NCBI GenBank assembly: GCA_050117375.1
Contig: JASFMV010000001.1
Location: 421 to 64,420, forward strand
Direction: 5' to 3'
DNA length: 64,000 nucleotides
Source of the DNA: Nitrosopumilaceae archaeon
Lineage (GTDB): Archaea; Thermoproteota; Nitrososphaeria; Nitrososphaerales; Nitrosopumilaceae
Shown here piece by piece: positions 2,059 through 14,865 of this stretch. Positions within the stretch are counted from its first letter, which is position 1; the number at the start of each line of letters is the position of its first letter. The notes beneath the pieces were generated by a model. That model did no database searches and was not told the origin of the DNA. It saw only the letters and a list, made by a program, of their open reading frames with translations. The translations under genes were made by a program, and so were the position numbers.

Positions 2059-2074
2059 GTAAGGAAGGTAACAC

Positions 2075-2377
2075 ATGAAAACAATATCATTAAAAAAAGC
2101 AAAAAACTTAAAACGTAAGTGGAGAATGGTTGTTGATGTATATCCTACTATGCGGCAGGTTGTAAGGGATCACAAGGACGAATTATTAAAAGACGGTTTT
2201 GAGCATTGTGTAATTGGTACCGGTGTTACTGCGTATACACATGATCGCTGTGTATATTTACAACCGGTTCAATCAATCAAATTTTTGAATGGCTGGTATC
2301 TTATTATAGGTGAGGGAACACCGGGAAGAAGAAAAAAGTATACTGGTTGGTGTATAAAGGTTGATTTGGAGGTGTGA
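2075..2377 (+). CDS. hypothetical protein, paralogue of 16691..16996
   Basis: Collinear similarity by eye over the full length (KRKW..., DELLKDGF, IGTG..AYTH, LIIGEG.PGR.K, GWCI). Confidence 0.65.
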   Translation: MKTISLKKAKNLKRKWRMVVDVYPTMRQVVRDHKDELLKDGFEHCVIGTGVTAYTHDRCVYLQPVQSIKFLNGWYLIIGEGTPGRRKKYTGWCIKVDLEV

Positions 2378-2379
2378 TA

Positions 2380-2664
2380 ATGGGTGTAATAACAGAAAAA
2401 GAATTGTCTGTAAAAGAAGAAATAAAAAAGAGACCTATGTCTTTGGAAAATTATTTTAAAGACAAGGATTTTTGTTTAGAGCAAATGAGGGAGGCGAGAG
2501 AGTTATTTGGAAATAGAAAAACAACTCCCGAACAATATCAAGCAATATATAGGGTAATTGGATTTGTGTTGCTTTATGGTCCTGAAGAAATTAGATATAT
2601 GGCGCAGGCACTAATTGACGAAGTAGCGAGGAGAGAAATATTTTTTATTACAAATGTTTGGTAA
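2380..2664 (+). CDS. hypothetical protein
   Basis: ATG 2380 lies behind GGAGG. Confidence 0.55.
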   Translation: MGVITEKELSVKEEIKKRPMSLENYFKDKDFCLEQMREARELFGNRKTTPEQYQAIYRVIGFVLLYGPEEIRYMAQALIDEVARREIFFITNVW

Positions 2665-2682
2665 GTAAAAAGGAGAAATAAA

Positions 2683-3093
2683 ATGGACGAAAAAGAGTTT
2701 ATAGAAAATATTAAAAATTTAGACAGGACAGAAAAACAATTTGTTGAAATTGTTAATAACTTGTTTCAAGACAAGGGATTAGAAAGCAGACTAATTATAA
2801 AAGATAATTCTGATCCTGAAGTTGACTTGGCTTTCAGTTTACACGGCCCGACAAGCGAAGAACAACAGGCTGCTGAAATTGTGAGCACTGCAATGAAGAC
2901 ATACACCATAAATGGATGTAAAAATGTTATTCATGGGAATATTGGACAAAACCATGAATTACGTGATTTAGAAATTGTAGAAAAACAAATAAAAATGATG
3001 TTGCACTTGCATGAGAAAACAGCACAGCAACTAGGACTAACACCGGAAGAATACGAAAACCGGATGGACAAATTATTTGAAAGCCTACATTAA
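2683..3093 (+). CDS. hypothetical protein
   Basis: 136-aa ORF behind the AAAGGAGAAATAAAATG RBS. Confidence 0.6.
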   Translation: MDEKEFIENIKNLDRTEKQFVEIVNNLFQDKGLESRLIIKDNSDPEVDLAFSLHGPTSEEQQAAEIVSTAMKTYTINGCKNVIHGNIGQNHELRDLEIVEKQIKMMLHLHEKTAQQLGLTPEEYENRMDKLFESLH

Positions 3094-3106
3094 AGGAAGT
3101 ATTTTT

Positions 3107-3229
3107 ATGAAATGTTTTACTTTGATTTATTTTACAAAGCAATTTGATAAATTTGAGTATGTAGAAAAAGAAATACCAAGTACATATGATAAAAAGATTG
3201 TTTTAAAAGAAAATGAAAAAAAAATGTAA
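3107..3229 (+). CDS. small hypothetical protein (40 aa)
   Basis: ATG behind AAAGGAAG. It is below the ORF-track length cutoff. Confidence 0.25.
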   Translation: MKCFTLIYFTKQFDKFEYVEKEIPSTYDKKIVLKENEKKM

Positions 3230-3323
3230 ACAGTCAATGTCATAAAATGGTAAGTAAAGGATTTTTATTTTCAAGATTTGTTAATAATACATGGGAATTT
3301 AAAAAAAGAAGAGGTGAAAATAA

Positions 3324-3524
3324 ATGAATAAAAATAAACCAGTATTTACTGAAGTTTGCTATGGAACAATTACGCCTGATATGACATTACGTGATTATTT
3401 TGCTGCAAAAGCAATGCAAGGAATGAAAGCATCAGAAACAGAAATGGTTGGTTATAGCGTTGAAAATCTTGTTAAAAATGCTTATATCATTGCTGATCAA
3501 ATGTTGTTGCAAAGGAAAAAATAA
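3324..3524 (+). CDS. hypothetical protein
   Basis: 66-aa ORF behind GAGGTG. Confidence 0.5.
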   Translation: MNKNKPVFTEVCYGTITPDMTLRDYFAAKAMQGMKASETEMVGYSVENLVKNAYIIADQMLLQRKK

Positions 3525-3534
3525 AAAAAAATAC

Positions 3535-3563
3535 TTTACTAAAATGTCTTTTAATAGTATTTT
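3535..3563 (+). promoter_or_regulatory. sigma70-like promoter, class A (TTTACT-N17-TATTTT)
   Basis: Same AAAAA(G)TACTTTACT core as the promoters at 16332, 19789, 41596, 45458, 45890 and 39215(-). Confidence 0.45.
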
Positions 3564-3581
3564 AACTATAAAGAGGCAAAA

Positions 3582-4334
3582 ATGAACAACATAACTGATT
3601 ATACGTATGCTGAAATAAACTATGATATTTGTTTTATTAAAAAAATAACTCCTTACCTTGATGATATAAAAGACAAAAACGGAAGACCGTTAAGAAACAA
3701 AGCCCGTGCCTATGCCTGGTATTATGTTTTTAATAATAATATTAAGGCAGATGCTTATAGACGGGCCTACCATAGTAGATATAATCCTGAAACCGGAAAA
3801 TTAGAAGAAATAATTAGAGGTGATTTGACAAAAAAAGAAGCGAAGGCCAGAAATGTTCGTATTTCAGTTAAGGCAAATGAGCTGCATTCTTACCCTTATA
3901 TCCAGCAATGTGTAGAACTTATTGAAAAAGACCACATAAAAAAAATAAAAAAAACCTTACCGCAAAGTATGTTAGAACAATTAGTTATACATGCCACCTA
4001 CGATCCATCTATGTTTTTTACTCCGCGTGGAAGAGTGGCCTTTAAAACCTGGGAAGAAATACCGGAAAAATACCGGTGTTGTGTTGAAGGAATAGAAACA
4101 AGGGCATATGGAAAAGATGGAAATGTAAGAATATCTACAATAAAATTAGTTGATAGGGACAAGGCCCGGAAATATTTACTACAAATTTGCCCCGGCCTGT
4201 TAGAAGCTGAAAAACATGAAATAATACATAAGACAATAGATGAAAACGGAGCAGTTGTTGGAATGGACGTAAAAAAACTTACGGATGCAGAGTTAATTCA
4301 AAAATATCAGGAACTGAAGAACAGGGAGAAATAA
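3582..4334 (+). CDS. terS: terminase small subunit (putative)
   Basis: The N-terminal ARAYAWYY..NIKADAYRRAY segment and the C-terminal DRDKARKYLLQI segment resemble Terminase_2-type small subunits. Position is upstream of the packaging genes. Confidence 0.5.
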   Translation: MNNITDYTYAEINYDICFIKKITPYLDDIKDKNGRPLRNKARAYAWYYVFNNNIKADAYRRAYHSRYNPETGKLEEIIRGDLTKKEAKARNVRISVKANELHSYPYIQQCVELIEKDHIKKIKKTLPQSMLEQLVIHATYDPSMFFTPRGRVAFKTWEEIPEKYRCCVEGIETRAYGKDGNVRISTIKLVDRDKARKYLLQICPGLLEAEKHEIIHKTIDENGAVVGMDVKKLTDAELIQKYQELKNREK

Positions 4335-4336
4335 AC

Positions 4337-4672
4337 ATGGAAACAGGCAGCATTGTGGCGTTGATTACATCCGGCTTTACTATGCTGGGCGGGATATTAA
4401 CAATAATGAAGGTGTTTAGCATGATACATAAAAAAGCAAAAGAGGAAGGACGCAAAGAAGAACAGTTTTGTGAAATTATTAAAGACGTGAACGGTTATGG
4501 TAAGAGATTATTAGAAGCTGAAAAAGATAATATGATAACAAAGAATAAAATAAATAAGCTTGAAAATGAAATATCTGCTAAGCTTGATGTTATCATTATT
4601 AAAACAGAGAGTACAGAAAAGAGAATGGACAGAATAGAAAATCATATATTTAATCAGGGAGAGAGAAAATGA
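4337..4672 (+). CDS. membrane-anchored coiled-coil protein
   Basis: Hydrophobic N-terminal segment (IVALITSGFTMLGGILTIMKVF) followed by a charged helical region. Confidence 0.55.
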   Translation: METGSIVALITSGFTMLGGILTIMKVFSMIHKKAKEEGRKEEQFCEIIKDVNGYGKRLLEAEKDNMITKNKINKLENEISAKLDVIIIKTESTEKRMDRIENHIFNQGERK

Positions 4673-4921
4673 ACGCATTGCAAAATTTAAAAAAAAAGAA
4701 TAATCCGGGACGACAAAGGAAATTTTAAAGGGTACAAGGGAAATCCATTGTTTCATCCAAATCCCAATATTAAAGGTTTTTCCAGTACAGAAAAAAGGCT
4801 GAAGGGGATTTGCACCAGGTAAATAAAAAGCAAAGCAAAGAGAGACGTGGAAAACTGGTAAAGAAAATATAAAACCCACTATCAAAAAGCGGGAAAATTA
4901 AAATATAAGTGGAGGAACCAA

Positions 4922-5215
4922 ATGAAAATAATTTCAGGTTTACAGTATTTAGTTACAAAAGTAGTATCAGTATTTAAAATAATAAAAAGGCTTTATAATA
5001 AAGATAAATTAAATTTATCTAAAACAATAACAATCCCTTTTACAAACAGAAATGTTACAGTTGTATTTGGCTGGTTGGTCCGGGACAAATGGGCCTTGTT
5101 TTCTGTATCTATGTTCCAGGTAGAATGGGATTGTTGTTTATCTGTTTTTGAATTAAAAGTTTTAAAATTCAGAATACATATAATCACTTATAAAAGAAAA
5201 GGAACATCAAAATGA
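4922..5215 (+). CDS. hypothetical protein
   Basis: ORF behind the strong RBS GTGGAGGAACCAAATG, which recurs at 22985 and 29710. Confidence 0.5.
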   Translation: MKIISGLQYLVTKVVSVFKIIKRLYNKDKLNLSKTITIPFTNRNVTVVFGWLVRDKWALFSVSMFQVEWDCCLSVFELKVLKFRIHIITYKRKGTSK

Positions 5216-5448
5216 AAATAGGCAAAAGACTGGGAAAACATTCTTTTTATTTATTGTTTTCCTTGATTATTGTCTTTGTTGTTACGGAGCTAATAAAGCC
5301 TTTTGTACTGTTTGGAATGTCTATAGAAAGCTGGCAATTGGTCCTGGGAACAACACTGGCCCTACACGGAAGTGTCTGGGGATGTGTGGCAACAAAGAAT
5401 TTTCGTAAACAGATTAACAAAGACAGTACATTACCTGGAGGAAATTAA
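5212..5448 (+). CDS. small two-TM membrane protein (holin candidate)
   Basis: Two hydrophobic stretches and a charged C-terminus. It lies just upstream of the cell-wall hydrolase gene. Confidence 0.4.
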   Translation: MKIGKRLGKHSFYLLFSLIIVFVVTELIKPFVLFGMSIESWQLVLGTTLALHGSVWGCVATKNFRKQINKDSTLPGGN

Positions 5449-5449
5449 A

Positions 5450-5590
5450 ATGATTTTAGAATATCCTATATCACAAAAATTTAATACTGACCCGGATATC
5501 GAAGAACAAGAAAAAAAGGATTCTATGAATAACAAAATAGATAAAACAAAAAAAGAAGATCAATATGAAAGAGGAGTGCGGAATGGATAA
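5450..5590 (+). CDS. small acidic/basic protein (46 aa)
   Basis: ATG 5450 behind GGAGGAAATTAAA. The upstream part of ORF 5372..5590 overlaps the previous gene. Confidence 0.35.
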   Translation: MILEYPISQKFNTDPDIEEQEKKDSMNNKIDKTKKEDQYERGVRNG

Positions 5591-5825
5591 AGTATTAGTA
5601 GCTATTCGGGTTAAAGGACATTGTATTATTCAGGGAAGTGATAAAAAAGTAACTGACTGGGAAATTTTGGGAATATACGGTATAGAGAACAGGGGAAAGG
5701 CTATACAACGTTGTAACCGGATTGGGGATATATTAGTTAGTCTCCCCTTTAATACAGATTTTCCTGATGAAGTGCAATATTTCGGAAAAGATGAAATTGT
5801 GTTTCAAAATACACAATATGCATAA
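5583..5825 (+). CDS. hypothetical protein
   Basis: ATG 5583 behind GAGGAG. Confidence 0.5.
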   Translation: MDKVLVAIRVKGHCIIQGSDKKVTDWEILGIYGIENRGKAIQRCNRIGDILVSLPFNTDFPDEVQYFGKDEIVFQNTQYA

Positions 5826-5837
5826 AGGAGAAAATTT

Positions 5838-6710
5838 ATGAAACAACTAACATACGGACAAAGACTTTTTGAAGATTTATTTGAATTAAATAATTTTGAT
5901 ATAAGAACAATGCAGGCACGACCAAGCGTGTTTGTTATTCGTAATTGTTGTATAGGTCAAAATGGAACAGATTTCACGTATGCAAAAGATACCGGGGACA
6001 ATATTTGTGATTCGATTATATTATATTCTCCAGTAAACGGGGAATATAATATTGTTGAAGGCCGGACTATCCCGCATAGAAAATATCAAAAAAGAATGGT
6101 AGAGGGAACAGCACGGGCAAATTATATTTCGCCTGGACTATACCCGTTTGCATTACGAAAAGGACATCATAGAGGAAAAGAGGCATTAGTCCAAAACAAG
6201 GCATATATAATTTTTCGTTCTGCCGATATGATTTTTGGTAATGAAGACGATTATGCTGATCCGGACGGATTTGTGGCTGATAACCTGCATGGCAATGCTC
6301 CCTATTCTGCCGGGTGTATTACTATTGCCGGCGATATGATAATAAATGAAAAAACAGGTGAAGAAATAAGAACAGGAGACTGGGCAGAAACGCATGACTG
6401 GATTTATAACATAAATAAATCACAAACATTTTTTAATACGGGAATATTTAATTATTCTGATATAAGTTCCCGAAACAGGAACAATTGGAAATTGATGCCC
6501 GGTAGCTACGGAGAAAGGGTAGCAATGTTGCAATCCGGCCTGAGGATTAAACCGGATGGGGACTTTGGTCCAGTGACGTTTTTTGCATTAAGAAAAAAAC
6601 AAGAGGAACTGGGCTTATTTTCTAATGGTATTTTTGATATACGGACAAGGAATATCTGGGACCAGATGCAGATATTAGACGTTGCAAAAAATCCTACAGA
6701 GGAAATTTAA
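5838..6710 (+). CDS. cell-wall hydrolase / endolysin candidate with C-terminal peptidoglycan-binding domain
   Basis: The C-terminus GERVAMLQSGLRIKPDGDFGPVTFFALRKKQ looks like PG_binding_1. The central LHGNAPYSAGCITI resembles the YkuD-type H...SxGC catalytic motif. Confidence 0.55.
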   Translation: MKQLTYGQRLFEDLFELNNFDIRTMQARPSVFVIRNCCIGQNGTDFTYAKDTGDNICDSIILYSPVNGEYNIVEGRTIPHRKYQKRMVEGTARANYISPGLYPFALRKGHHRGKEALVQNKAYIIFRSADMIFGNEDDYADPDGFVADNLHGNAPYSAGCITIAGDMIINEKTGEEIRTGDWAETHDWIYNINKSQTFFNTGIFNYSDISSRNRNNWKLMPGSYGERVAMLQSGLRIKPDGDFGPVTFFALRKKQEELGLFSNGIFDIRTRNIWDQMQILDVAKNPTEEI

Positions 6711-6721
6711 GGAGAAATAAA

Positions 6722-7054
6722 ATGAAAAAAATATTTTTAATACTTTTAATTTTTTTGTATGGTACTATATTATTTGTCGGGTGTGCGTCTATGAAAAAGC
6801 CGGATATTGACAAAGATTATACCGGTTTTACGGTTACAGAAAAAAAGATGCAGTATGAATATGATATGTGCTGTTATGCGCAACAATTTAGCAAAATAGA
6901 TTTGAAGTGCGACAACATAAAAGACAGGAACCAAAAAGTAAATATGATCCTGTTATATAACACATTAAAGAATACGGATGCCCTCCCGATTATTTATAGA
7001 AAAACCGGTGAAGAAATAATGACGTTTGACGATTTTAATAAATATATACAATAA
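6722..7054 (+). CDS. lipoprotein (spanin or exclusion candidate)
   Basis: Signal peptide ending in the lipobox LFVGC. Confidence 0.55.
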   Translation: MKKIFLILLIFLYGTILFVGCASMKKPDIDKDYTGFTVTEKKMQYEYDMCCYAQQFSKIDLKCDNIKDRNQKVNMILLYNTLKNTDALPIIYRKTGEEIMTFDDFNKYIQ

Positions 7055-7063
7055 GGGGACAAA

Positions 7064-7585
7064 ATGATTAAATATAAAAACATACAATTAAAATCAGTTT
7101 ATGATTTAACACATTATTTAAAAAATATGTCGATAAAAGATAAATCATATTTATTTATTCGGGAGAATGAATATAAAATTGAAAGCACGATATGGGAAGA
7201 AATGTTTGAAATTTATCTAGAGACTATTCCGGTTGGTTTTGTGTATATCAATAAGCAAGTGGAACACCGTAAAGCTGTTATTAATGGAATATATATTATT
7301 CCTGAATATAGAACCGCACATATTGCATTAATGGCAATGTTATGTGTTTGTGTTTATATTTTTAATTTTTTAGGATATAATAAAATAGAATCATCTACAA
7401 TCGAACATAATAGTCCCAGTTATGTGTTTCAGGATTCCTATATGAAAAAGGAAGGAACACAAATACAGTCATTGTATTATCAAAGAAAGTTTTATGATCA
7501 AAGTCTCTTTGGTTTACGTTTGTTTGAGTTTGAAGAATTATTAGAAAAACATAAAATTAAATTAAGCGATGTTAGAATAATATGA
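7064..7585 (+). CDS. hypothetical protein, weak GNAT-like motif
   Basis: GIYIIPEYRTAHIALMAM resembles the GNAT motif A region. This is weak evidence. Confidence 0.3.
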   Translation: MIKYKNIQLKSVYDLTHYLKNMSIKDKSYLFIRENEYKIESTIWEEMFEIYLETIPVGFVYINKQVEHRKAVINGIYIIPEYRTAHIALMAMLCVCVYIFNFLGYNKIESSTIEHNSPSYVFQDSYMKKEGTQIQSLYYQRKFYDQSLFGLRLFEFEELLEKHKIKLSDVRII

Positions 7586-9087
7586 CAAGTGTAAATTCTA
7601 TGATTGCCGGAGATTTTGCGGCACAAATGTATAGAGAGTTAGAAATGAGACAATTAGCACGGTCTCATTTAGCTCCCTTTACGCAGTACCTGTTCCCCAT
7701 GTATCAACTAACAGGGATACATAAAGAGTATGCACAAATATTAACATTGTTTGCGCGGGGAGAAATAAAAAAATTAATTATTTCAATGCCGCCTCAGCAT
7801 GGTAAATCAGAATTGTCTACTTTGCGACTTCCGGCATTTATGTTTGGACAGAATCCAAATTTAAAAGCTGCAATTGCTAGTTATAACGCAACAAAGGCAC
7901 GGGGATTTAATACAAAGCTGCAACGGATCATTGCAGATCCATTATATTTTAATTTGTTCCCGGAAACAACTATCAGTAGTACTCCTTTTAGCCAAAAGTC
8001 TAAAACGGGAATGAAGTTTCAAAGAAAACAAGAAGAATTTGAAATAATAAATTATCAGGGTAGTTGTAAAGCGGTGGGAAGAGGGGGAGCCCTTACCGGT
8101 GACCCGGTGGATTTAATCCTTATGGATGATTTATACAAAGATTATGCGGAAGGGAATAGTCCTGTTGTTCGGGAAACGGTAATTGATTGGTATACTGCGG
8201 TTGTTCGTACAAGACTGCATAACAATAGTCAGCAATTAATTGTTTTTACCCGGTGGAACGAAGAAGATTTAATTGGATTTATAGAAAGGTCGGACGACGA
8301 AAAGGTTATTTTACTTACCGAAAAAACACAATTAAATAATATTGACATTGATGCCTGGTATAAAATTAATTTCCCTGCTCTTGCAACAAAAGAATCGGAA
8401 TTAAATGAATTTGATGGAAGAAAAGAGGGTGAACCGTTATGGCCGGAAAGACATAGCCAAAAAAAATTAATAAACGATAGAAACTTAGACGAAGAAAAAT
8501 TTGAGTCCCTACATCAAGGAGATCCGAAGCCTTCTAAAGGATTATTATATAAAGGATTTAATATTTACATAACTAAGCCGGCCTTTAAGTGGAGAAAAAA
8601 TTATACAGACGTTGCCGACACGGGAAAAGATTATTTGTGTAGTATTTGCTATGAAGTCGGAGTAGACGACATGATATATATTACTGATATTTATTATACA
8701 GACGAACCGCAGGATAAAACAGAAATTGAAACGGCCGAATTATTAGACCGGAACAAAGTTAATATTGCATATGTAGAAAGTAATGCCGGTGGCCGGGCCT
8801 TTGCAAGAAATGTAGACGGGTTTACAAAGGGCCGGCATGTGTTGGAAACATTTTATCAGGGAGACAATAAGGAAAGCCGGATTATTTCTAATTCAGCAGC
8901 TATACAAAGAAAAATTTTATTTCCCATAAACTGGACTACGCGGTGGCCAGAATTTGCAAGGGACATATTACGATTTAAAAGAAATTTTAAAGCAAATTCA
9001 CATGATGATGCACCGGACGCTTTAACAGGAGTTTATGAAAAAAGCGGGTTGGCTCCAATTGATACAAAATCATTGTGGAGAAAATAA
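7582..9087 (+). CDS. terL: terminase large subunit
   Basis: Walker A-like ISMPPQHGKSE, Walker B-like LILMDDLY and the C-terminal nuclease motif SHDDAPDALTG. Overall it has the Terminase_6 pattern. Confidence 0.85.
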   Translation: MTSVNSMIAGDFAAQMYRELEMRQLARSHLAPFTQYLFPMYQLTGIHKEYAQILTLFARGEIKKLIISMPPQHGKSELSTLRLPAFMFGQNPNLKAAIASYNATKARGFNTKLQRIIADPLYFNLFPETTISSTPFSQKSKTGMKFQRKQEEFEIINYQGSCKAVGRGGALTGDPVDLILMDDLYKDYAEGNSPVVRETVIDWYTAVVRTRLHNNSQQLIVFTRWNEEDLIGFIERSDDEKVILLTEKTQLNNIDIDAWYKINFPALATKESELNEFDGRKEGEPLWPERHSQKKLINDRNLDEEKFESLHQGDPKPSKGLLYKGFNIYITKPAFKWRKNYTDVADTGKDYLCSICYEVGVDDMIYITDIYYTDEPQDKTEIETAELLDRNKVNIAYVESNAGGRAFARNVDGFTKGRHVLETFYQGDNKESRIISNSAAIQRKILFPINWTTRWPEFARDILRFKRNFKANSHDDAPDALTGVYEKSGLAPIDTKSLWRK

Positions 9088-9089
9088 AA

Positions 9090-9272
9090 ATGGAAAATGA
9101 AAAACTATATAGAATAGAATTATATTATGCAGTATTCGGAATTGTAGTAAATGTAAAAGATAATATTATCGTAGATGCGCCCCCTATAGCGCGTTGGATG
9201 GTAGGAAAACCGTTAGCTAAAATTAAAGTTTGGGTTGATAAGAAAAACGGTACAATTACAAAGATAAAATAA
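9090..9272 (+). CDS. small hypothetical protein
   Basis: ATG 9090 follows directly after the terL stop. Confidence 0.45.
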   Translation: MENEKLYRIELYYAVFGIVVNVKDNIIVDAPPIARWMVGKPLAKIKVWVDKKNGTITKIK

Positions 9273-9283
9273 AGGAGAAAATA

Positions 9284-9931
9284 ATGAAATGTTTTTATTG
9301 TGGATCAAATTGTGATAAAAAATATTCAATAAAAGAATATGTAAAAAAAACGTTTACAAATTATGATATAGTGGCTTGTCCTGATTCTCAATATGTCTGT
9401 GATGATTGTGTTTGGGCATTTGGCAGCAATTCTGAAATACAAATGATAGATGGAGAAATTAGAAATGGAAGTCCCCGTAATTATTCCTGGTTTATAACAA
9501 AAAATAAAAAAATAGCATTTACTAAAAAGCATATTGAGGAAATAAAATATTTATTATTTCATATCAAAAAAAAACCATTCAAATTAGTTATTGCAGATTC
9601 TGGACAAAAGCATTTATTATTTAGAGCTCCATGGAACTTTGATAAAAATAATTTTATATTGCAGTTTGAGGAACAACAAATTATAGTTGATTTGAAGGAA
9701 TTGGCAAAACGAATATTTATATGTAATAGACTAAGTGCTGCTATAGGAAAAGTAGCAATATTGAATCCTGATAAAGTACAATATGCAATAGCTGTTCAAA
9801 AATACTGGAATGATTTAATTGAGTATGAGAAATGGCTCAAAATACATATGCAACCATTGTCACAGTTGGCGGTATGGTTAGCAAAAAATAAACAGGAGGC
9901 TCAAAATGAATATCAATCAGTTAACACCTGA
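9284..9931 (+). CDS. csf1: Csf1-like (Cas8-like) zinc-finger protein, type IV-B-like
   Basis: N-terminal CFYCGSNC...CPDSQYVCDDC cysteine cluster. It is the first gene of a translationally coupled operon whose order matches csf1-cas11-csf2-csf3. Confidence 0.45.
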   Translation: MKCFYCGSNCDKKYSIKEYVKKTFTNYDIVACPDSQYVCDDCVWAFGSNSEIQMIDGEIRNGSPRNYSWFITKNKKIAFTKKHIEEIKYLLFHIKKKPFKLVIADSGQKHLLFRAPWNFDKNNFILQFEEQQIIVDLKELAKRIFICNRLSAAIGKVAILNPDKVQYAIAVQKYWNDLIEYEKWLKIHMQPLSQLAVWLAKNKQEAQNEYQSVNT

Positions 9932-10346
9932 AGAGTTCCGTTTAAAAATAGCAGGGCTATTGGACCCGCTGGGACAAATGGATGATTTGGGTAAAAAATC
10001 AATGGAAGATGAGGTTATAAGATTTGTATCAATATTGCCTGAAGTGTTTGGTGATAATTTGGACCGCAAAACACTATGGGAACGAATTGGCAATGGACTT
10101 GTTTCTTCATTGGCAAAAGCCGGTGGTGATGTTGAACTTTTTGTTAATCATTGTTTGGATTATGTTAAAGCAGATAGTGGTAAAGCTGCAGCAAATGAAA
10201 ATTTACATTATTTTATTTCGACATTATCAACAAGAGATAAAGAATGGAAACAACAATTTCTACGTACAATTGAAAAAAAACATTATCTTATTATTGTTAA
10301 ATCCCGTGATACTTGGAATAAAAATAAAAAGGGAGGCACGAAATGA
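9906..10346 (+). CDS. cas11: Cas11-like small subunit (putative)
   Basis: 146-aa protein with helix-favouring composition, in the Cas11 position between the csf1-like and csf2-like genes. It has a strong RBS (CAGGAGG). The call rests mainly on position. Confidence 0.35.
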   Translation: MNINQLTPEEFRLKIAGLLDPLGQMDDLGKKSMEDEVIRFVSILPEVFGDNLDRKTLWERIGNGLVSSLAKAGGDVELFVNHCLDYVKADSGKAAANENLHYFISTLSTRDKEWKQQFLRTIEKKHYLIIVKSRDTWNKNKKGGTK

Positions 10347-11287
10347 ATAAAACAGTAAGACCAAAAGTAAAACGTAGAAAAAAAGATATAGGAACAGTTA
10401 AAGTTCATTGTGTGTCTGAGACTTTGTCCCCATTAACGCACATGATGGAGACAGCTGGAAATGAGTCAATAATCAATAGGGAAAAGGTTATCCATAATGG
10501 TATGGAAAAATGGATACCTGTTTTGTCTGGAAATTCAATTCGTCATAAATTAATTCGTGATTCCGGTATGCATTATCTTCTTAATGCATGTAGCATGAGA
10601 AAGAAAATTGACATTAAACAGGCTAATTTTTTGTTTTATGGCGGTGGATTAACTGAAAGCAGCAACTCTGAGAAAATGAAAGAAATTGCCGAAATGTATG
10701 AATTGTTTCCACTTGTGAGGCTATTAGGGGCAAGTCTTCCGTGGCAAATAGTTGCAGGAAGTCTCATTGTGTTTCGCGGGAAATTAATTTGTGAAGAAAA
10801 TAAACATTTTATTTATGAGTTATTGCCCGAAAAATTTGATATTGATTTGAATTGTCAACTGAAATCAAGTGAAGATTTTATTCACGCATATCAATATACA
10901 AGAGGCGATATTACTCGACATAAGGATGTTGTTGAGATCGTTTCTCAAGATGAATTAGCATCGGATAAAAAAACCGGTTTAATGATTTATAACGGACAAT
11001 GCATTATTACCGGATCATTATTTTATCACGGCTTTATCTTGAATAGAATATCGCGTAAAGAGGTCGGTGCCTTTTTTTTATCTTTGGAAACATGGCAGGA
11101 ATCCGGTGCGTTTCTTGGTGGCTATTCAAGAATTGGACATGGTAAATTGAAATTGAACGTCATGATCGAAGACAGCAAGGATTTTATTTCCGCCAGCGAT
11201 ATTGACGACTGCATTGACGAATACATTAATCATGTTGAGGTTAATAAAGCCAAGTGTATCGAATGGCTTGATAAAAATTTTAAGTGA
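10343..11287 (+). CDS. csf2: Csf2/Cas7-like RAMP protein (putative)
   Basis: IPVLSGNSIRHKLIRD resembles the RAMP/Cas7 motif (G/S)xS(L/I)(R/K)GxLR. The C-terminal LGGYSRIGHGKL resembles a glycine-rich RAMP loop. Size (314 aa) fits. Confidence 0.55.
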   Translation: MNKTVRPKVKRRKKDIGTVKVHCVSETLSPLTHMMETAGNESIINREKVIHNGMEKWIPVLSGNSIRHKLIRDSGMHYLLNACSMRKKIDIKQANFLFYGGGLTESSNSEKMKEIAEMYELFPLVRLLGASLPWQIVAGSLIVFRGKLICEENKHFIYELLPEKFDIDLNCQLKSSEDFIHAYQYTRGDITRHKDVVEIVSQDELASDKKTGLMIYNGQCIITGSLFYHGFILNRISRKEVGAFFLSLETWQESGAFLGGYSRIGHGKLKLNVMIEDSKDFISASDIDDCIDEYINHVEVNKAKCIEWLDKNFK

Positions 11288-11295
11288 GGTCGTTT

Positions 11296-11976
11296 ATGGC
11301 AATAGAAAATTTTAAAGTAACGGCTTATTTGGTTGCACCAGTGGTGGGGGAAATACCACCACTGGACTCATTGTTGACTTATCAGCTTGCATTTTATATG
11401 AATACATTCAAATCAAAAAAATATACAAAAGCAACACCTATAACTGAATTTGAACGTTTGCCGATACCGCTTACTGAATATGATGTTGGAGGAGATAAAG
11501 TTAACTGTTGTTCTGATCCGGTTTATATAATTGAAACAGAATGGCATGATAAATTGGCAAAAAGATTTGAAACAGATATGCTTAGCACAATCATAGATCC
11601 ACTAAAGAGAAAAACCATTAATATAGGGGGTGGGTATTTACGTTCAAGATTTCAGACGCTGCATGCTAAAATAATTAGTAGGGTGGTTTGGTTTGCTAGG
11701 GGGGACTCTGAGCAGGCATTACGATTATTGAAATATGTTAACTCGCTTGGTTATTTTAGAAAAATAGGATATGGTATTGTAAATAAATGGAATGTTGAAA
11801 TAATAAAGGAAAATTTTTCAATATCCGCGCGGTGCTCCGGGAAAAAAATATTGATGAAGACTCTGCCTGTTTGTGATGCTACTCGAAACATGGACGGTAT
11901 TCGTTATGGATTTGGTGCATACAAACCACCCTACTGGCATCCAGAAAATCAGTGTGAGGTTGTGGTTCCATGTTAA
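11296..11976 (+). CDS. csf3: Csf3/Cas5-like RAMP protein (putative)
   Basis: N-terminal APVVGEIPPLDSLL and the glycine-rich LGYFRKIGYGIV loop. ATG 11296 lies behind GAGG. Position follows the cas7-like gene. Confidence 0.45.
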   Translation: MAIENFKVTAYLVAPVVGEIPPLDSLLTYQLAFYMNTFKSKKYTKATPITEFERLPIPLTEYDVGGDKVNCCSDPVYIIETEWHDKLAKRFETDMLSTIIDPLKRKTINIGGGYLRSRFQTLHAKIISRVVWFARGDSEQALRLLKYVNSLGYFRKIGYGIVNKWNVEIIKENFSISARCSGKKILMKTLPVCDATRNMDGIRYGFGAYKPPYWHPENQCEVVVPC

Positions 11977-12515
11977 ATGGTTATTATATAATACAACAAT
12001 ACGCAAATGTGATTCAGGATTATCCATTGTTTTTTACTTTTGCTAAAAAAAATAAATTATGGAAGTATATTTATCCACACTATAGGTGGGACGTGTTGCA
12101 AATTATAGCACTTGTTTGCCTGTCTCCTGGAACTCTAAATGAAAAATATAATTTTTTACAAAGAGAACTTTATTATTTTTATAATAAAATTGTTTGTACT
12201 TTTCATTTAAAAAAGAAAAATAAATGCAAACAAAAAAGGAGTATACCAAAACATAAAAATCATTGCGATATTTGTGGAAAAGATAAATTAGAATATATGA
12301 CTAAATCATTATTTCCTGGAAAAAAAGTTTGTAATTATTGTTATATGCAGCATAAGCGCAAGTATGTGAATAAATATTATGGGCGTCTGATAAAAACATG
12401 TGAATTATGTGGAAAAGAAACAAGAACAGGATTATATACAAGTGTTTTTCCTGGAAAAAAAGTTTGTATGAGCTGCTATCAAAAAGAAATGTATAGAAGG
12501 AAAAAAAAAAAATGA
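11970..12515 (+). CDS. double zinc-ribbon protein
   Basis: Two tandem copies of C(D/E)xCGK-x12-15-FPGKKVCxxCY, with a lysine-rich C-terminus. It overlaps both neighbours. Confidence 0.6.
   Translation: MLNGYYIIQQYANVIQDYPLFFTFAKKNKLWKYIYPHYRWDVLQIIALVCLSPGTLNEKYNFLQRELYYFYNKIVCTFHLKKKNKCKQKRSIPKHKNHCDICGKDKLEYMTKSLFPGKKVCNYCYMQHKRKYVNKYYGRLIKTCELCGKETRTGLYTSVFPGKKVCMSCYQKEMYRRKKKK
12501..12512 (+). repeat. A12 homopolymer at the gene junction
   Basis: Twelve consecutive A run straight into the overlapping ATGA stop/start of 11970..12515 and 12512..12925. Confidence 0.9.
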
Positions 12516-12925
12516 GAGTGGTTTTATATAATGTTGGACGTAATTTAAATCGTGCATATCGTACTTGTTTTAGTTTTGGAATTGAAAAATTAATTTTAGT
12601 AAATTCACAGGATATAAGTATAAAATGGGAATTGAAAGGAAATCTGTTTGAAGCAAAAAATAAAGTTAAAATAATAGAAACTAACATGATGCCATTGATT
12701 GATATGCATACAATTGCACTCGAAAATTATTATAAACAATCTATATATAATATCACATGGAACAATCTTGATACTATACTGATAGGTGGAGAAACGAAAG
12801 GGCTCCCTAAATTGATTAGTTGCCAGAAAGCAACAATACCAACAATCAATAATTTTTGTTTGACAGTAGAGGCATCATTAGCAATTGCCCTGTCGGAATG
12901 GAGACGAAATGTTAATACAGTGTGA
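12512..12925 (+). CDS. minimal SPOUT (SpoU/TrmH/TrmL-like) RNA 2'-O-methyltransferase
   Basis: VVLYNVGRNLNRAYRTCFSFGIEKLILV (motif 1-like) and ILIGGETKGLP...ATIPT...CLTVEASLAIALSEW (motifs 2/3-like). Confidence 0.6.
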   Translation: MRVVLYNVGRNLNRAYRTCFSFGIEKLILVNSQDISIKWELKGNLFEAKNKVKIIETNMMPLIDMHTIALENYYKQSIYNITWNNLDTILIGGETKGLPKLISCQKATIPTINNFCLTVEASLAIALSEWRRNVNTV

Positions 12926-13622
12926 CAAGCATACACAACAGGATTTAGAAATTTGGGATAGTTATGAGGAAGCCGATTTGATTTATTATAATAATCATAA
13001 TATGGTGGAAAAAGAACAAAAAGCTATTGATACTATTATCAATTTTGATAGTGATTATGTTAGTACTTCATGGGGCAAGGACTCAACTGTTTTGGTGCAT
13101 TTGTGTTATAGGGCACAAATTAAAATACCATTGGTGTGGATTATTGTTAAAGATATTGTAAATCCTTATTGTTTTGATGTTAGAAATTATTTTTTAAAAA
13201 CTTATAATGTTAATTATTATGAGATAACCGAAAGCAGGTGGTATGATGGTAATCGCTATAGGGCCACAGGTGTTTTAGAAAATGGTTTTAAAAAAGCAGT
13301 TAAACAATTTGGAAAAAAATATATATCCGGTGTACGTGCTGAAGAGTCTGGAATAAGAAAAATGTTAACAAAAATTTATGGTGTAAAGACAGAAAAAACC
13401 TGCCGTCCGTTGGCATATTGGAAACAATCAGATATTTTTGCCTATTTGGCTCATTATCAATTGCCGGTTCATCCAAATTACGGGATGTTGGGTGGTGGGA
13501 GATATAACCGTGAACATATACGGGTTGCTTCATTGGGCATTAAAAGAGGCGATGCTTTTGATAAATTGCTATGGGAAAAAGAATACTATCAAAATGAATT
13601 AAACAAAATTGGAGGAATATAA
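12909..13622 (+). CDS. CysH-like PAPS-reductase-family PP-loop protein
   Basis: PP-loop variant YVSTSWGKDSTVLVHL, plus ISGVRAEES and PLAYWKQSDIFAYL blocks. It lacks the C-terminal Cys motifs of true PAPS reductases. ATG 12909 lies behind GGAG. Confidence 0.65.
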   Translation: MLIQCDKHTQQDLEIWDSYEEADLIYYNNHNMVEKEQKAIDTIINFDSDYVSTSWGKDSTVLVHLCYRAQIKIPLVWIIVKDIVNPYCFDVRNYFLKTYNVNYYEITESRWYDGNRYRATGVLENGFKKAVKQFGKKYISGVRAEESGIRKMLTKIYGVKTEKTCRPLAYWKQSDIFAYLAHYQLPVHPNYGMLGGGRYNREHIRVASLGIKRGDAFDKLLWEKEYYQNELNKIGGI

Positions 13623-13623
13623 A

Positions 13624-14865
13624 ATGGTAATGGAAGCACTGCGCACAGACGGCTGGTCAAATTTAATTGCCGGTATCGGTGTAAAGAAAAAAGATAAAAC
13701 AGAAAATACATATTTTGTTGAAGATTATATTTTGGAAGATGAAGACTTGTCCGCGTTGTATGATGGAGAAGGACTGGCGGCAAATATAATTGATGCTGTA
13801 CCGGATGATATGACACGGGCCGGGTGGACAATAGCAAATGACGAAAAAGAAAAAATACAAAATGAAATGAAAAGGATTAAAGCGGTATATTATTTAAACA
13901 AGGCATTAAAATATGCCCGTCTATATCGTGGGGCTATTGTTGTTATGATTACAGAGCGGGGAGAATTAGACAAGCCTATACCGGCTAATCCTGGAAATGT
14001 AAAACGCCTGCGTGTATATTCTGCAAAAAGAATAATATTAACATCAACTGATATTGTAGAAGATCCGAATTCAGAATATTTTGATGACGTTGAAATATTT
14101 CATGTTTTAACCCGTTCCGGGAAAATGCTAGATATACATAGATCGCGTTGTTTGTGGTTTGGAGGCGAACTTGTATCTGATGATTTTGAATTAGATCTTA
14201 CCTATCAATATTGGGGACTGTCTACAATGCAAAGAATATGGGCCCGGTTAAAAAATTACGGAGCAGTGGAAAGGGCTGTTGCAAATTTGCTTTTGGAGTT
14301 TAATTTGGGGATATATGAATTTTCTAATTTAGCTGAAATATTAGCTATGAATAAAGAAGAAATGATGAGTGCTGTATACACACGGTTAGAAGCTATAAAC
14401 GCATGCAAGTCTATGTTAAACGCTGTTATGATCGGTGAAGGGGAGTCTTTTACAAGGGACTCTGCGAACCTGTCCGGTTTAGCGGACATTATAGATAGAA
14501 TGATGATTAATTTAACCGGTGTTGCAAAGATCCCGGCAACTAAATTATTTCGGCGATCTCCTGCGGGAATGAATGCGACAGGCGAAAGCGATATAACTAA
14601 CTATTATGATGATGTGAGTACACAACAGACACAAAAACTTGAACCGGAACTGCAAAAATTAATTAATGTAATCGGAAAAGCTGTTTATGGCAGCAACAAA
14701 GAAAATAAATATACAATTACTTTTAATTCTTTGTGGGAGCCGACTGAAAAAGAAAAAGCCGAAACAAAAAAATTAAATGCGGAAACACATTCAACTGATA
14801 TTGCAAATCAAGTTATAGATGCGGAAGAGTCTCGTAAAATAAGGTATCCAGATTTGGAGGTATAG
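13624..14865 (+). CDS. portal protein (DUF1073-like)
   Basis: N-terminal ALRTDGWSNLIAGIGVKKKDK is typical of DUF1073 portals. Size and position fit. ATG 13624 lies behind GGAGG. Confidence 0.75.
   Translation: MVMEALRTDGWSNLIAGIGVKKKDKTENTYFVEDYILEDEDLSALYDGEGLAANIIDAVPDDMTRAGWTIANDEKEKIQNEMKRIKAVYYLNKALKYARLYRGAIVVMITERGELDKPIPANPGNVKRLRVYSAKRIILTSTDIVEDPNSEYFDDVEIFHVLTRSGKMLDIHRSRCLWFGGELVSDDFELDLTYQYWGLSTMQRIWARLKNYGAVERAVANLLLEFNLGIYEFSNLAEILAMNKEEMMSAVYTRLEAINACKSMLNAVMIGEGESFTRDSANLSGLADIIDRMMINLTGVAKIPATKLFRRSPAGMNATGESDITNYYDDVSTQQTQKLEPELQKLINVIGKAVYGSNKENKYTITFNSLWEPTEKEKAETKKLNAETHSTDIANQVIDAEESRKIRYPDLEV

Follow-up and report, generated by a model that had tools for sequence, protein, structure and literature searches.

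The CRISPR-Cas complex of type IV-B binds heterogeneous RNA of 55–60 nt without sequence specificity; its published structure shows no density for Csf1 or Csf3, and the RNA cargo came from heterologous expression (PMC7937560). In type IV-A systems, Cas11 and CysH are absent, and the loci have a CRISPR array, Cas6/Csf5 and the helicase DinG (PMC7038947). The 'CasCysH' proteins are defined by the presence of a PP-motif and the absence of the catalytic cysteine (PMC8175902). Type IV systems were earlier noted in prophages, lytic phages and an archaeal virus (PMC10848311, PMC11656645). Here we analyse a 64 kb stretch of phage DNA (the window), in which a sequence-only reading had recognised an arrayless type IV-B-like operon. 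A predicted RNA 2'-O-methyltransferase in this cassette points to RNA as the target of the long-unexplained IV-B system.

Results

Seven tightly packed forward-strand ORFs (window positions 9284–13622) are wedged between terL and the portal gene, in the order csf1, cas11, csf2 (cas7), csf3 (cas5), Zn-ribbon gene, SPOUT methyltransferase gene and CysH-like PP-loop gene. Overlaps of 26, 4, 7, 4 and 17 nt join them, with gaps of 8 nt before ATG 11296 and 1 nt before the portal ATG 13624. AGGAG/GGAGG-type sites lie 6–9 nt upstream of csf1, cas11, cas7, ATG 11296, ATG 12909 and ATG 13624; an SD-like GTGAGGT precedes ATG 11296 and TGGAGGA precedes ATG 13624. This arrangement agrees with the sequence-only reading in the positions of all seven ORFs, their overlapping stops and starts and their GGAGG sites. 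Since Shine-Dalgarno-type sites are present at ATG 11296 and ATG 12909 and the homologue alignments begin at the matching residues, we favour these starts over those of the longest ORFs (GTG 11284 and TTG 12885). The motifs singled out beforehand, IPVLSGNSIRHKLIRD, LGGYSRIGHGKL, LGYFRKIGYGIV, PPLDSLL and an N-terminal CxxC...CxxC, all occur in the translations and are conserved or invariant across the homologue alignments. In composition the cassette matches the remaining genome, and neither promoter nor terminator signals stood out.

The cassette is flanked on the left by the large terminase TerL (7582–9087, forward strand; Pfam Terminase_6N 7.5e-8 plus a T7 RNaseH-like domain; phrog_38 3.6e-87) and on the right by the portal protein (13624–14865, alternative start 13609, forward strand; Phage_portal_3 1.6e-85; phrog_146 9.2e-104). 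Between terL and csf1 lies a small forward-strand ORF (9075–9272; 65 aa if it starts at GTG, about 60 aa if at ATG 9090) that has no family match in Pfam, NCBIfam, PHROGs or PADLOC and no homologue in any of the related loci; as RNA, these nucleotides have no folding advantage over their shuffled versions (z = -0.17). The 64 kb encode a sheath, a baseplate and a full replication module, and no integrase was found among the scanned ORFs, in keeping with the virulent-looking myovirus proposed earlier. The phage genes are of bacterial type, with a sigma-factor-like protein, RecA, DnaB, PolA and Shine-Dalgarno sites. The cassette is a translationally coupled accessory block in the terL-portal junction of a virulent-looking bacterial myovirus.

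The four Cas-family matches are far above chance (PADLOC, rounded, 1e-62, 3e-44, 8e-84 and 1e-32) and bear out the roles that had been read from the sequence. The first gene, csf1 (9284–9931), encodes a Cas8-like type IV large subunit that carries a Zn finger at its N-terminus (PADLOC typeIV_Cas8 9.9e-63, Csf1_0_IV 7.3e-31; NCBIfam cas8u_csf1 3.6e-12, under that model's cut-off). Its profile (A3) matched solved Csf1 (8rc3_G) at 2e-4, and in the homologue alignment C39 and C42 are invariant and C3 and C6 nearly so. The small subunit encoded by cas11 (9906–10346) matched PADLOC typeIV_Cas11 over its full length (PDLC01570 2.7e-44, PDLC01573 4.1e-38), and 45 of the 52 related loci described below have the gene between csf1 and cas7. 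Against solved chains, 7JHY Cas11 included, the Cas11 profile gave no sequence match.

The RAMP backbone subunit Csf2 or Cas7 (10343–11287) was identified by PADLOC typeIV_Cas7 (8e-84) and phrog_22746 (2e-72). Its profile (A1) matched PDB 11fs_C 'Cas7c' at 4.6e-15 and 7jhy Csf2 at 1.9e-8; single-sequence phmmer against 7JHY Csf2 gave an E of only 1.3e-3. When the AlphaFold (AF2) model of Cas7 (pLDDT 86.1) was searched with Foldseek, the top 27 PDB matches were type IV Csf2 chains (for example 7xg0_D, 2.3e-13), followed by the type IV-B Csf2 of 7JHY (7jhy_a, 4.3e-9, TMt 0.71) and then by type III Csm3. Csf3 or Cas5 (11296–11976; 11284 in the longest ORF) matched PADLOC typeIV_Cas5 Csf3_0_IV (1e-32) and phrog_34599 (5.4e-30), and its profile (A2) matched solved Csf3 (8rc3_F and 7xfz_B) at 5e-8 over its full length. 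Both putative RAMP subunits thus resemble RAMP proteins, the Cas7 model leading to Csf2 and the Cas5 profile to Csf3.

The window lacks a CRISPR array, as the sequence-only reading had noted: TRF, a search for spaced direct repeats and a k-mer chain scan all failed to reveal one. Cas6, DinG/RecD and adaptation genes were likewise not found in the 64 kb. Based on the PADLOC profiles, the matches to solved structures, the Csf2-first ranking of the Cas7 model, the CasCysH features described below and the missing array, Cas6, DinG, RecD and adaptation genes, the cassette is, at least with near certainty, a genuine, intact, arrayless type IV-B effector set csf1-cas11-csf2-csf3 accompanied by a CysH-like PP-loop protein.

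The Zn-ribbon accessory protein (11970–12515) has a conserved domain at its N-terminus, together with a basic linker and a tandem pair of Zn ribbons (CxxCGK...FPGKKVCxxCY); its Pfam matches are weak Zn-finger matches only. Homologues with one Zn ribbon each occupy the same position in L004 and L010/L058. Small wHTH-like ORFs that fill this slot in other loci turned out to be unrelated on comparison.

The next gene (12512–12925) encodes a minimal SPOUT (SpoU/TrmL-like) methyltransferase, in line with the extra RNA modification that had been suggested (Pfam SpoU_methylase 1.8e-7; its 31.8 bits barely exceed the cut-off of 29.7). The best Foldseek matches of its AF2 model (pLDDT 85.7) are all SPOUT RNA 2'-O-methyltransferases, with TrmH (1v2x; 2.2e-7, TMq 0.76) ahead of RlmB, TrmL/YibK and TrmJ, and the protein is predicted from this model to be an RNA 2'-O-methyltransferase. 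Among 37 homologues of about 135 aa, all seven whose contexts were fetched adjoin a CysH-like gene and six of the seven are also beside csf genes; in L062, the SPOUT and CysH-like context is without an annotated csf gene. For six further homologues, the longest contig has the same length as that of a Cas7 homologue, which suggests that both lie on one contig. The enzyme genes of L063 and L038 stand between cas7 and cas5. Of the CysH sequences linked to SPOUT, six group in a single clade, and a further two make up a pair at some distance. The SPOUT gene occurs in just 8 of the 52 related loci and is therefore not essential for IV-B function generally, and the mechanism may differ between IV-B subclades. 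A literature search found no published description of a link between SPOUT and CysH-like or csf genes, and the methyltransferase may be the part of the finding that is new.

The last ORF (12909–13622; 12885 in the longest ORF) encodes the CysH-like PP-loop ATP pyrophosphatase-type protein that had been expected there (Pfam PAPS_reduct 6.4e-11). Its profile (A5) matched CysD (1zun, 6.9e-9), the PAPS reductases 1sur and 2o8v (about 4e-6) and TtuA (1e-3). In the alignment, the SWGKDS PP-loop shows no variation at S62, G64, D66 and S67 and hardly any at W63 and K65; a GxRxxES motif has invariant R151 and E154, and a C-terminal WExEYY is conserved. The alignment contains no conserved C-terminal cysteine; with its PP-motif and without the catalytic cysteine, the protein has the features of a CasCysH.

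Our collection of related loci has 52 distinct members; IMG/VR viral contigs supplied 38, and Cas7 identities to the window are 21–66%. The order csf1-cas11-cas7-cas5 and many invariant residues are kept across them, and an ATGTTAA stop/start junction stands 3' of cas5 regardless of the next gene. In L010, the nearest relative showing both genes, TerL is 61% and the portal 54% identical, and the cassette follows the portal gene; related phages have it behind the portal gene, next to PolA or upstream of the terminase. Placement between terL and the portal gene is specific to the present phage. The cassette behaves like a moron and belongs to a phage-borne clade that occupies different genome positions in different phages, and the Zn-ribbon protein and the SPOUT methyltransferase are co-inherited extensions of it. 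The 'new context' of the sequence-only reading was consequently an overstatement: the terL-portal site is indeed specific, but type IV systems had already been noted in phages (PMC10848311, PMC11656645), relatives of the cassette sit on 38 IMG/VR contigs, and PHROGs already includes the Cas7 and Cas5 families. In some relatives, a long PAPS_reduct+DUF3440 protein and a partner with ParB_N are present in addition; this resembles DNA-modification modules and weighs against the RNA-based explanation given below.

Discussion

Our best explanation overall, which we hold tentatively at a little under an even chance, is an RNA-binding Csf filament serving RNA to two enzymes, one that adenylates and one that 2'-O-methylates. 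By analogy with the solved Mycobacterium IV-B complex, RNA of about 55–60 nt would be bound, and kinked every 6 nt, by an assembly of several Csf2 subunits with a minor filament of Cas11, capped by Csf3 and Csf1. The bound RNA might be cellular, phage or host-CRISPR RNA; because there is no array and no Cas6, it would not be a phage-encoded crRNA. The Csf filament would then be a platform presenting RNA to the two enzymes. The linkage of the SPOUT and CysH-like genes to each other and to csf genes speaks for these enzymes as partners of the complex. Since its ATP-pyrophosphatase loop is intact and the catalytic cysteine absent, the CysH-like protein would adenylate its substrate rather than reduce PAPS, and this substrate may be DNA, protein or a small molecule instead of RNA. 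Methylation of ribose 2'-OH groups would be the task of the SPOUT enzyme. As an 'RNA-modifying platform', a mechanism that we infer, the cassette is a possibility that we place clearly short of even. Every ribonuclease whose nucleophile is the 2'-OH is blocked by 2'-O-methylation, and for this reason the likeliest benefit to the phage would be that chosen RNAs are shielded from host RNA-cleaving defences or that captured host guide RNAs are disabled; such a specific protective or counter-defence role is nevertheless doubtful. The position of the cassette within the head-morphogenesis operon suggests late expression, which is unusual for a counter-defence needed early and counts against the proposed role. 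Adaptive immunity is not a likely role of the cassette.

It is unlikely that the Csf filament is a passive RNA sponge or anti-CRISPR, sequestering host crRNAs or small guide RNAs, with the enzymes not acting on the bound RNA. This hypothesis has been published for plasmid IV-B systems (PMC7038947, PMC7937560, PMC8175902) and fits the RNA binding of the complex without sequence specificity (PMC7937560) as well as the arrayless, phage-borne state of the cassette. However, it leaves without a role both the near-universal CysH-like partner (short CysH, 40 of 52 loci) and the co-inherited SPOUT enzyme, whose gene is placed within the effector operon in some loci. The late-type operon position also speaks against it, and even those who put the hypothesis forward regard an anti-CRISPR of such complexity as unlikely (PMC7038947).

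Quite unlikely, too, is that crRNAs from a host CRISPR-Cas6 system are loaded and guide the binding of competing phages, plasmids or host genes, with the enzymes acting on the target. Type IV-A provides a precedent for crRNA-guided binding without a nuclease (PMC11656645), and the IV-B locus of an archaeal Fuxivirus has a mini-array (PMC10848311). In the distant relative L059, the same SPOUT and CysH pair occurs with type IV Cas5, Cas7 and Cas6 and two CRISPR arrays, so the pair can operate in a guided setting. Yet none of the 57 sources scanned (the window and L001–L056) held an array of at least three repeats within 10 kb of the cassette.

We consider it improbable that the CysH-like protein modifies phage DNA near packaging and thereby evades restriction, with the Csf proteins as a DNA/R-loop-binding scaffold. 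The PAPS-reductase family includes the DNA-modifying DndC (PMC8175902), the CysH-like protein has a weak BrxP match (3e-5), the cassette adjoins packaging genes here and in L010, L021, L061 and L063, and the PAPS_reduct+DUF3440 additions with ParB_N would fit as well. However, the catalytic cysteine required for phosphorothioation is missing, the solved structures closest to the SPOUT fold all act on RNA ribose, the solved IV-B complex contains RNA (PMC7937560), and the phage encodes separate C5 and N6/N4 DNA methyltransferases. A decaying, functionless passenger, acquired horizontally, would explain the missing array, Cas6, adaptation genes and nuclease and the related protein P0050, which looks like a Cas7-CysH deletion fusion, but is very improbable given seven intact, translationally coupled ORFs with upstream ribosome-binding sites, a genome-like composition and gene order and invariant residues kept across 52 loci of such divergence.

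With the type IV-A Csf-crRNA-DinG complexes (7XG0, 8RC3), the cassette shares homologous Csf1, Csf2 and Csf3; the Cas7 model has its closest structural matches among them (2.3e-13), and the Cas5 and Csf1 profiles have their top sequence matches there, but none of the IV-A-specific parts was found in the 64 kb. Type III-A Csm, with its Csm3 backbone, shares the filament logic and the Cas7 fold and gives the next-best structural matches after type IV. Here, Cas7 residues 35–40 form a disordered loop adjoining the invariant G39, N40 and E41, approximately at the position of the Csm3/Csf2 'catalytic loop'; in contrast to type III-A, the cassette is without Cas10, cyclic-oligoadenylate signalling and an array. 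In box C/D RNPs and in bacterial Pnkp-Hen1 RNA repair, an RNA 2'-O-methyltransferase marks RNA and protects it from cleavage. Fibrillarin and Hen1 are Rossmann-fold methyltransferases and not SPOUT enzymes, and the scaffold proteins are not homologous; the likeness would be a functional analogy only.

The archaeal 'Fuxiviridae' virus likewise combines a IV-B effector module with a CysH-like gene in a head-tail virus; it differs in its mini-array, its archaeal host and in that no SPOUT methyltransferase is reported for it (PMC10848311), the phage genes here being bacterial-type. The type IV-B system of the JS623 plasmid (PDB 7JHY) has csf1, cas11, csf2, csf3 and a cysH-like gene in the same order, and lacks an array, Cas6, helicase and adaptation module as well; the Cas7 profile and model match its Csf2, and a CysH-like PP-motif without the catalytic cysteine is shared. 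In sequence the two are very divergent, as the phmmer value for Csf2 and the unmatched Cas11 profile indicate. Furthermore, the carrier is a plasmid there and a virulent-looking phage here, where two extra linked genes, for the SPOUT methyltransferase and the Zn-ribbon protein, are added.

Results

Layout of the cassette

Seven tightly packed plus-strand ORFs had been claimed between the large terminase gene terL (7582-9087) and the portal gene (13624-14865), and all seven are present there. The terminase flank matches Terminase_6N, and phrog_38 at 3.6e-87, while the portal flank matches Phage_portal_3 at 1.6e-85. The cassette (9284-13622, +) comprises csf1 (9284-9931), cas11 (9906-10346), csf2/cas7 (10343-11287), csf3/cas5 (11296-11976), a zinc-ribbon gene (ORF E, 11970-12515), a SPOUT gene (12512-12925) and a CysH-like gene (12909-13622), with junction overlaps of 26, 4, 7, 4 and 17 nt and otherwise gaps of 1-8 nt. 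AGGAG/GGAGG-type sites were found upstream of csf1, cas11, cas7, ATG 11296, ATG 12909 and ATG 13624. Since such sites precede ATG 11296 and ATG 12909, these starts, which the sequence-only reading had chosen, are preferable to the longest-ORF starts GTG 11284 and TTG 12885, and homologue alignments begin at the same residues. All peptide motifs quoted in that reading occur in the translations, on conserved or invariant columns. The cas5 product ends in ...PC at an ATGTTAA stop/start junction, and the next gene, whichever it is, therefore begins with ML.

Two candidate RNA elements were rejected. A G+C-rich 10-bp hairpin inside cas5, towards the 5' end of the gene (11338-11365, +; CCAGTGGTGG...CCACCACTGG; z = -3.1 versus shuffles), was considered as an RNA handle, but its complementarity is missing in eight homologous sequences. 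The stretch before csf1 (9088-9283) showed neither structure suggestive of a non-coding guide (z = -0.17) nor an Rfam match and is more likely a small ORF. Promoter and terminator scans between 5 and 17 kb gave counts near the shuffled expectation.

Cas proteins and subtype

To the first four products the sequence-only reading had assigned Csf1, Cas11, Csf2 and Csf3, and PADLOC/CRISPRCasTyper-derived profiles agreed in every case. The csf1 product matched the typeIV_Cas8/Csf1 profile (E 9.9e-63); its CxxC...CxxC cluster is conserved, and a profile built from its homologues matched the solved Csf1 of 8RC3 at 2e-4. The cas11 product matched two typeIV_Cas11 profiles over its full length (2.7e-44 and 4.1e-38); its homologue profile gave no sequence match to solved chains. 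The csf3 product matched the typeIV_Cas5 profile at 1e-32, and its homologue profile aligned over the full length with the solved Csf3 chains 8rc3_F and 7xfz_B at 5e-8. PADLOC labels of the form 'CAS-IV-A' are names of the source profiles and not subtype calls.

For the csf2 product, a match to the typeIV_Cas7 profile (8e-84) was accompanied by homologue-profile matches in the PDB to 11fs_C 'Cas7c' (4.6e-15) and to the type IV-B Csf2 7JHY (1.9e-8). The sequence-only reading had named likeness to RAMP folds as the point on which it could fail, and we found this likeness by structure as well: in Foldseek searches with the AlphaFold2 model of Cas7 (pLDDT 86.1, pTM 0.83), the first 27 PDB matches were type IV-A Csf2 chains, down to 2.3e-13, followed by 7JHY Csf2 (4.3e-9, TMt 0.71) and type III Csm3. 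In the model, residues 35-40 are a loop of low confidence adjoining the invariant G39, N40 and E41. In position only, this loop corresponds approximately to the 'catalytic loop' of Csm3 and Csf2 that has been discussed for 7JHY.

Standard annotation misses these genes. Pfam-A recognised none of the four products, and NCBIfam recognised Csf1, Csf2 and Csf3 only far under its cut-offs, which explains why GenBank labels Cas7 'hypothetical protein PVI88_00110'. With an NCBIfam score of 46 against a cut-off of 140 bits, csf1 would be overlooked by automatic annotation; present cut-offs thus overlook these Cas genes.

The presence of Cas11 sets subtypes IV-B and IV-C apart from IV-A. Because its gene content fits the literature definition (PMC7038947, PMC8175902), the cassette gene set is subtype IV-B. 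The finding is real and was rightly interpreted.

The absence of a CRISPR array, also claimed from the sequence, held in scans by TRF, spaced direct repeats and k-mer chains, which covered 64 of the 65.4 kb of the contig (~1.4 kb lying outside) and leave room for a mini-array of two diverged repeats. A 30-nt pair at 37648/37720 lies within a 469-aa ORF and was taken as a protein repeat. Across 57 sources (the window and the related loci L001-L056), the k-mer chain scan, taken to 10 kb around the cassette, revealed no array with at least three repeats; its sole match, a tandem repeat of 9 nt in L038, is coding sequence. Among the helicases and nearly all non-structural ORFs of at least 110 aa, PADLOC, Pfam or PHROGs gave no match to Cas6, Csf4, Csf5, RecD, Cas1 or Cas2. 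The helicases of the window are generic SF2 proteins or a helicase-methyltransferase fusion and neither DinG nor RecD. Types IV-A, IV-D and IV-E were rejected, as the window scans found no DinG/RecD helicase, Cas6 or array.

CysH-like and zinc-ribbon proteins

The last gene (12909-13622) had been read as a PP-loop CysH-like protein, and this reading stood: the product matches PAPS_reduct at 6.4e-11 (Pfam) and carries an SWGKDS loop. Profile comparison linked the product to CysD and PAPS reductases and, less strongly, to the tRNA-thiolating TtuA. Among 30 homologues, the PP-loop residues S62, G64, D66 and S67 never vary and W63 and K65 hardly do; a GxRxxES motif has invariant R151 and E154, and a C-terminal WExEYY is conserved. 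No Cys in the C-terminal region is conserved across these homologues. A bona fide PAPS/APS reductase with an ECGLH-type C-terminal Cys was therefore rejected, and the protein is CysH-like in fold only and not an auxiliary metabolic gene of sulfate assimilation. Taylor et al. distinguish 'CasCysH' from true CysH and DndC by a PP-motif (SGGxDS/T-like) without the catalytic C-terminal Cys (PMC8175902), which is exactly the combination seen here. The term 'CasCysH' occurred in a single paper of the literature searched.

The zinc-ribbon protein (11970-12515) begins with a conserved domain, followed by a basic linker and a pair of CxxCGK...FPGKKVCxxCY zinc ribbons; its few homologues have one ribbon copy each. 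In six related loci (L005 6860-7099, L007 3998-4264, L020, L041, L042 and L047), inspection by eye revealed a small wHTH-like ORF of 63-89 aa between cas5 and cysH, which always begins with ML at the ATGTTAA junction. We considered kinship between these ORFs and ORF E, but hhalign found no relationship.

A SPOUT methyltransferase linked to CysH and csf genes

The product of 12512-12925 exceeded the Pfam SpoU_methylase threshold only narrowly (31.8 versus 29.7 bits), and its profile gave no match to PDB sequences. As the profile-to-PDB search was blank, the assignment was settled by structure prediction. An AF2 model built on 34 homologues (pLDDT 85.7) found its best Foldseek matches in the RNA 2'-O-methyltransferases TrmH, RlmB, TrmL/YibK and TrmJ (TMq about 0.7-0.8), and the top 50 matches listed were all SPOUT-class or putative RNA methyltransferases (TMq 0.62-0.82). 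G92, E94, I109, L117, T118 and E120 are invariant in the 34 homologues. The product shows the SpoU_methylase domain in its knotted alpha/beta fold, with SAM-binding motifs at the C-terminus, and by fold is a predicted RNA 2'-O-methyltransferase.

A search with the SPOUT protein alone retrieved 37 homologues of ~135 aa. In all seven contexts fetched, a PAPS_reduct gene directly adjoins the SPOUT gene, and in six of them csf genes lie beside it as well; the seventh, L062, has none annotated. For six further SPOUT homologues the longest contig equals in size that of a Cas7 homologue, which suggests that they share contigs with Cas7 homologues. Enzyme genes can sit within the effector operon, as the order cas7-cysH-spoU-cas5 in L063 and a cysH between cas7 and cas5 in L038 demonstrate. 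In a neighbour-joining tree, the SPOUT-linked CysH sequences form one clade of six and a distant pair, to which L059 belongs.

L059 (RFGV01000537.1, from a MAG binned as Chloroflexi) holds a type IV-like locus at 174-7218 with Cas5, a 467-aa Cas7, Cas6, a Y_phosphatase2-like gene, the same SPOUT family and a CysH-like gene. It has two CRISPR arrays, at 174-659 and, with nine repeats, at 4343-4962, and represents a relative of the phage cassettes that, unlike them, bears arrays. A phosphatase-like gene is present in L060 too.

No paper in the literature searched, which did not cover all relevant type IV papers, joined SpoU, cysH, CRISPR and type IV. The SPOUT protein is a recurrent accessory enzyme, apparently not yet described, and given this incomplete coverage, priority on the link is uncertain.

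Related loci and phage carriage

A large protein database yielded 65 Cas7 homologues of 43-66% identity; among 1.84 billion representative proteins, the Cas7 family has 111 members at <=1e-30 and 749 at <=1e-10. While a scan of IMG/VR with the single Cas7 protein found nothing, alignment-based scans retrieved 38 viral contigs from IMG/VR, together with 12 MAG contigs under various bacterial labels. Removal of near-duplicates left 52 distinct loci, in which genes within 6 kb of cas7 were counted. Cas5 was found in 51 of the 52 loci and Csf1 in 45; Cas11, its position conserved, likewise in 45. A short CysH-like protein accompanied cas7 in 40/52, SPOUT in 8/52, a long PAPS_reduct+DUF3440 protein in 7/52 and the zinc-ribbon protein in 3/52.

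The place of the cassette among phage genes varies. The order TerL-portal-cassette occurs in L010/L017/L058 and in L021/L057, cassette-terS-TerL-portal in L061 and L063, and PolA-cassette in L006 and L023. In L010, whose TerL and portal are 61% and 54% identical to those of the window, the cassette lies on the opposite side of the portal. This varying position marks the cassette as a mobile accessory block.

The sequence-only reading had regarded phage carriage as a new context. This did not hold, since IV-B carriage by phages is common in metagenomes, as the 38 viral contigs attest, and already documented: type IV systems have been noted in prophages, some lytic phages and an archaeal virus (PMC10848311, PMC11656645). 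Both families, Cas7 and Cas5, are already in PHROGs, annotated 'unknown function'.

In many cassettes, the long PAPS_reduct+DUF3440 protein (370-440 aa) is present in addition or instead (L002 5512-7220; L006 6782-8535; L016, L022, L026, L027, L033 and L039). In L002 and L006 it is followed by a ParB_N protein, a combination that may resemble the IbrA/IbrB pair. A metagenomic protein of 451 aa, P0050, appears to fuse the first ~238 Cas7 residues to a CysH-like domain, with cas5 and the C-terminal part of Cas7 missing; this could reflect a deletion or an error of assembly.

Carrier phage and host

The claim of a myovirus was confirmed: the window encodes a contractile-tailed phage with head protease, HK97-type capsid, sheath, tape measure and baseplate wedge. 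Its replication set comprises primase, DnaB, clamp loader, SSB, RecA, exonuclease and PolA with an N-terminal UDG domain, and two DNA methyltransferases are encoded. No integrase was seen among the scanned ORFs. GenBank phages showed no DNA similarity beyond ~190 nt of terL and no tblastn match for Cas7, and the best capsid match among isolates reaches only 37% identity.

In GenBank, the contig (65,406 bp) belongs to a MAG that bears the name Nitrosopumilaceae archaeon. A sigma-factor-like ORF (42162-42746), a bacterial-type RecA (59873-60988) and strong AGGAG Shine-Dalgarno use point to a bacterial host, and the gene content makes an archaeal (Nitrosopumilaceae) host unlikely. With DnaB and PolA, among others, the gene content is that of a bacteriophage, and the contig was probably mis-binned.

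Several further features were seen in the window. A Hammerhead_II ribozyme (Rfam, full-length model, 40.7 bits versus a gathering score of 37) at 38923-38986 (-) has a minus-strand ORF on either side and falls in the one block of the window that is encoded on the minus strand (38.1-41.3 kb), which also shows a flip in GC skew. An unusually long tRNA-like gene (94-96 nt) at 18223-18318 (+), called tRNA-Asn with anticodon ATT by ARAGORN and scoring 29.2 bits in Rfam (threshold 29), may contain an insertion or intron or be a mis-call. PolA (54428-56971, +) is fused to its N-terminal uracil-DNA-glycosylase-superfamily domain, as in L005 and L006; PolA homologues of about this length also adjoin the cassette in L023 and L042. 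The methyltransferases are a C5 cytosine enzyme (49743-50807, +) and a 749-aa protein (50789-53038, +) in which an SF2/SNF2-like helicase is joined to an N6/N4 DNA methyltransferase. Directly upstream of terL, in the slot that a small terminase might occupy, lies a GNAT-like acetyltransferase ORF (7064-7585, +). A homologue of pyrimidine-dimer DNA glycosylase (17227-17685, +) follows further downstream, past the head genes. The SSB-like ORF (58568-59758) contains a 108-nt direct repeat of GAT/GAA-rich codons at 59423-59632 (+), which encodes an Asp/Glu-rich tail.

Discussion

A Csf2/Cas11 filament on RNA is known only for the Mycobacterium system, where this IV-B filament forms on heterogeneous RNA that is ~55-60 nt long and kinked every 6 nt (PMC7937560). 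The CysH-like protein of the cassette retains an ATP-pyrophosphatase loop without the reductase cysteine, and the SPOUT protein is modelled with an RNA 2'-O-methyltransferase fold. We propose that the filament might serve as a platform that holds RNA for CasCysH and SPOUT. CasCysH would perform adenylation-type chemistry on the held RNA and SPOUT would methylate its ribose 2'-O positions. RNases whose nucleophile is the 2'-OH are blocked by a 2'-O-methyl group, so protection of RNA from host RNA-cleaving defences is a plausible payoff; alternatively, captured guide RNAs would be inactivated. A wider reading, which we consider unlikely, is that type IV-B as such is an RNA-modifying ribonucleoprotein rather than an interference system. 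RNA gripped by Csf2/Cas11 would then be presented at 6-nt intervals to CasCysH and, in this subclade, to SPOUT, and phages would use the complex to make phage transcripts, tRNAs or captured guide RNAs resistant or useless to host RNA-cleaving defences. Since cassettes are found time and again next to genes for terminase, portal and MuF, the complex could possibly be made late and carried with the virion into the next cell.

Four points weaken the platform reading: SPOUT is confined to a minority of the loci, the substrate of CasCysH could be something other than RNA, some relatives carry the DNA-modification-like PAPS_reduct+DUF3440 and ParB_N proteins, and the late-operon position suits early counter-defence poorly. 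Among the rivals, a passive RNA sponge would bind RNA without altering it; it suits a filament on heterogeneous RNA and leaves the CysH-like and SPOUT enzymes without a role. Scavenging of host crRNAs for guided binding can point to L059, in which the SPOUT and CysH-like pair accompanies Cas6 and arrays, and has against it the array-free surroundings of the cassettes scanned. DNA modification at packaging could draw on the terminase neighbourhood and the DUF3440 relatives, and has the predicted RNA-directed fold of SPOUT against it. A decaying relic fits poorly with cassette proteins that are conserved and translationally coupled.

Reviews to late 2024 list the function of type IV-B as unknown, alone among the widespread CRISPR-Cas subtypes (PMC11656645), and the role of its signature CysH-like partner is regarded as the key question (PMC7038947, PMC7937560, PMC8175902). 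To this question the platform reading brings a specific proposal, namely that RNA held by the Csf filament would be the substrate of the accessory enzymes, and the seven-gene cassette of ~4.3 kb offers a handle on IV-B function. Here the partner of the CysH-like gene is an enzyme whose predicted chemistry, 2'-O-methylation of RNA ribose, is far more narrowly defined. The pairing recurs in independent phage lineages, inside the effector operon in some loci and beside Cas6 and CRISPR arrays in one distant locus. Compared with known type IV systems, the cassette is a known subtype in a documented though little-studied context; it leaves the classification unchanged and adds a compact, intact phage-borne version of IV-B.
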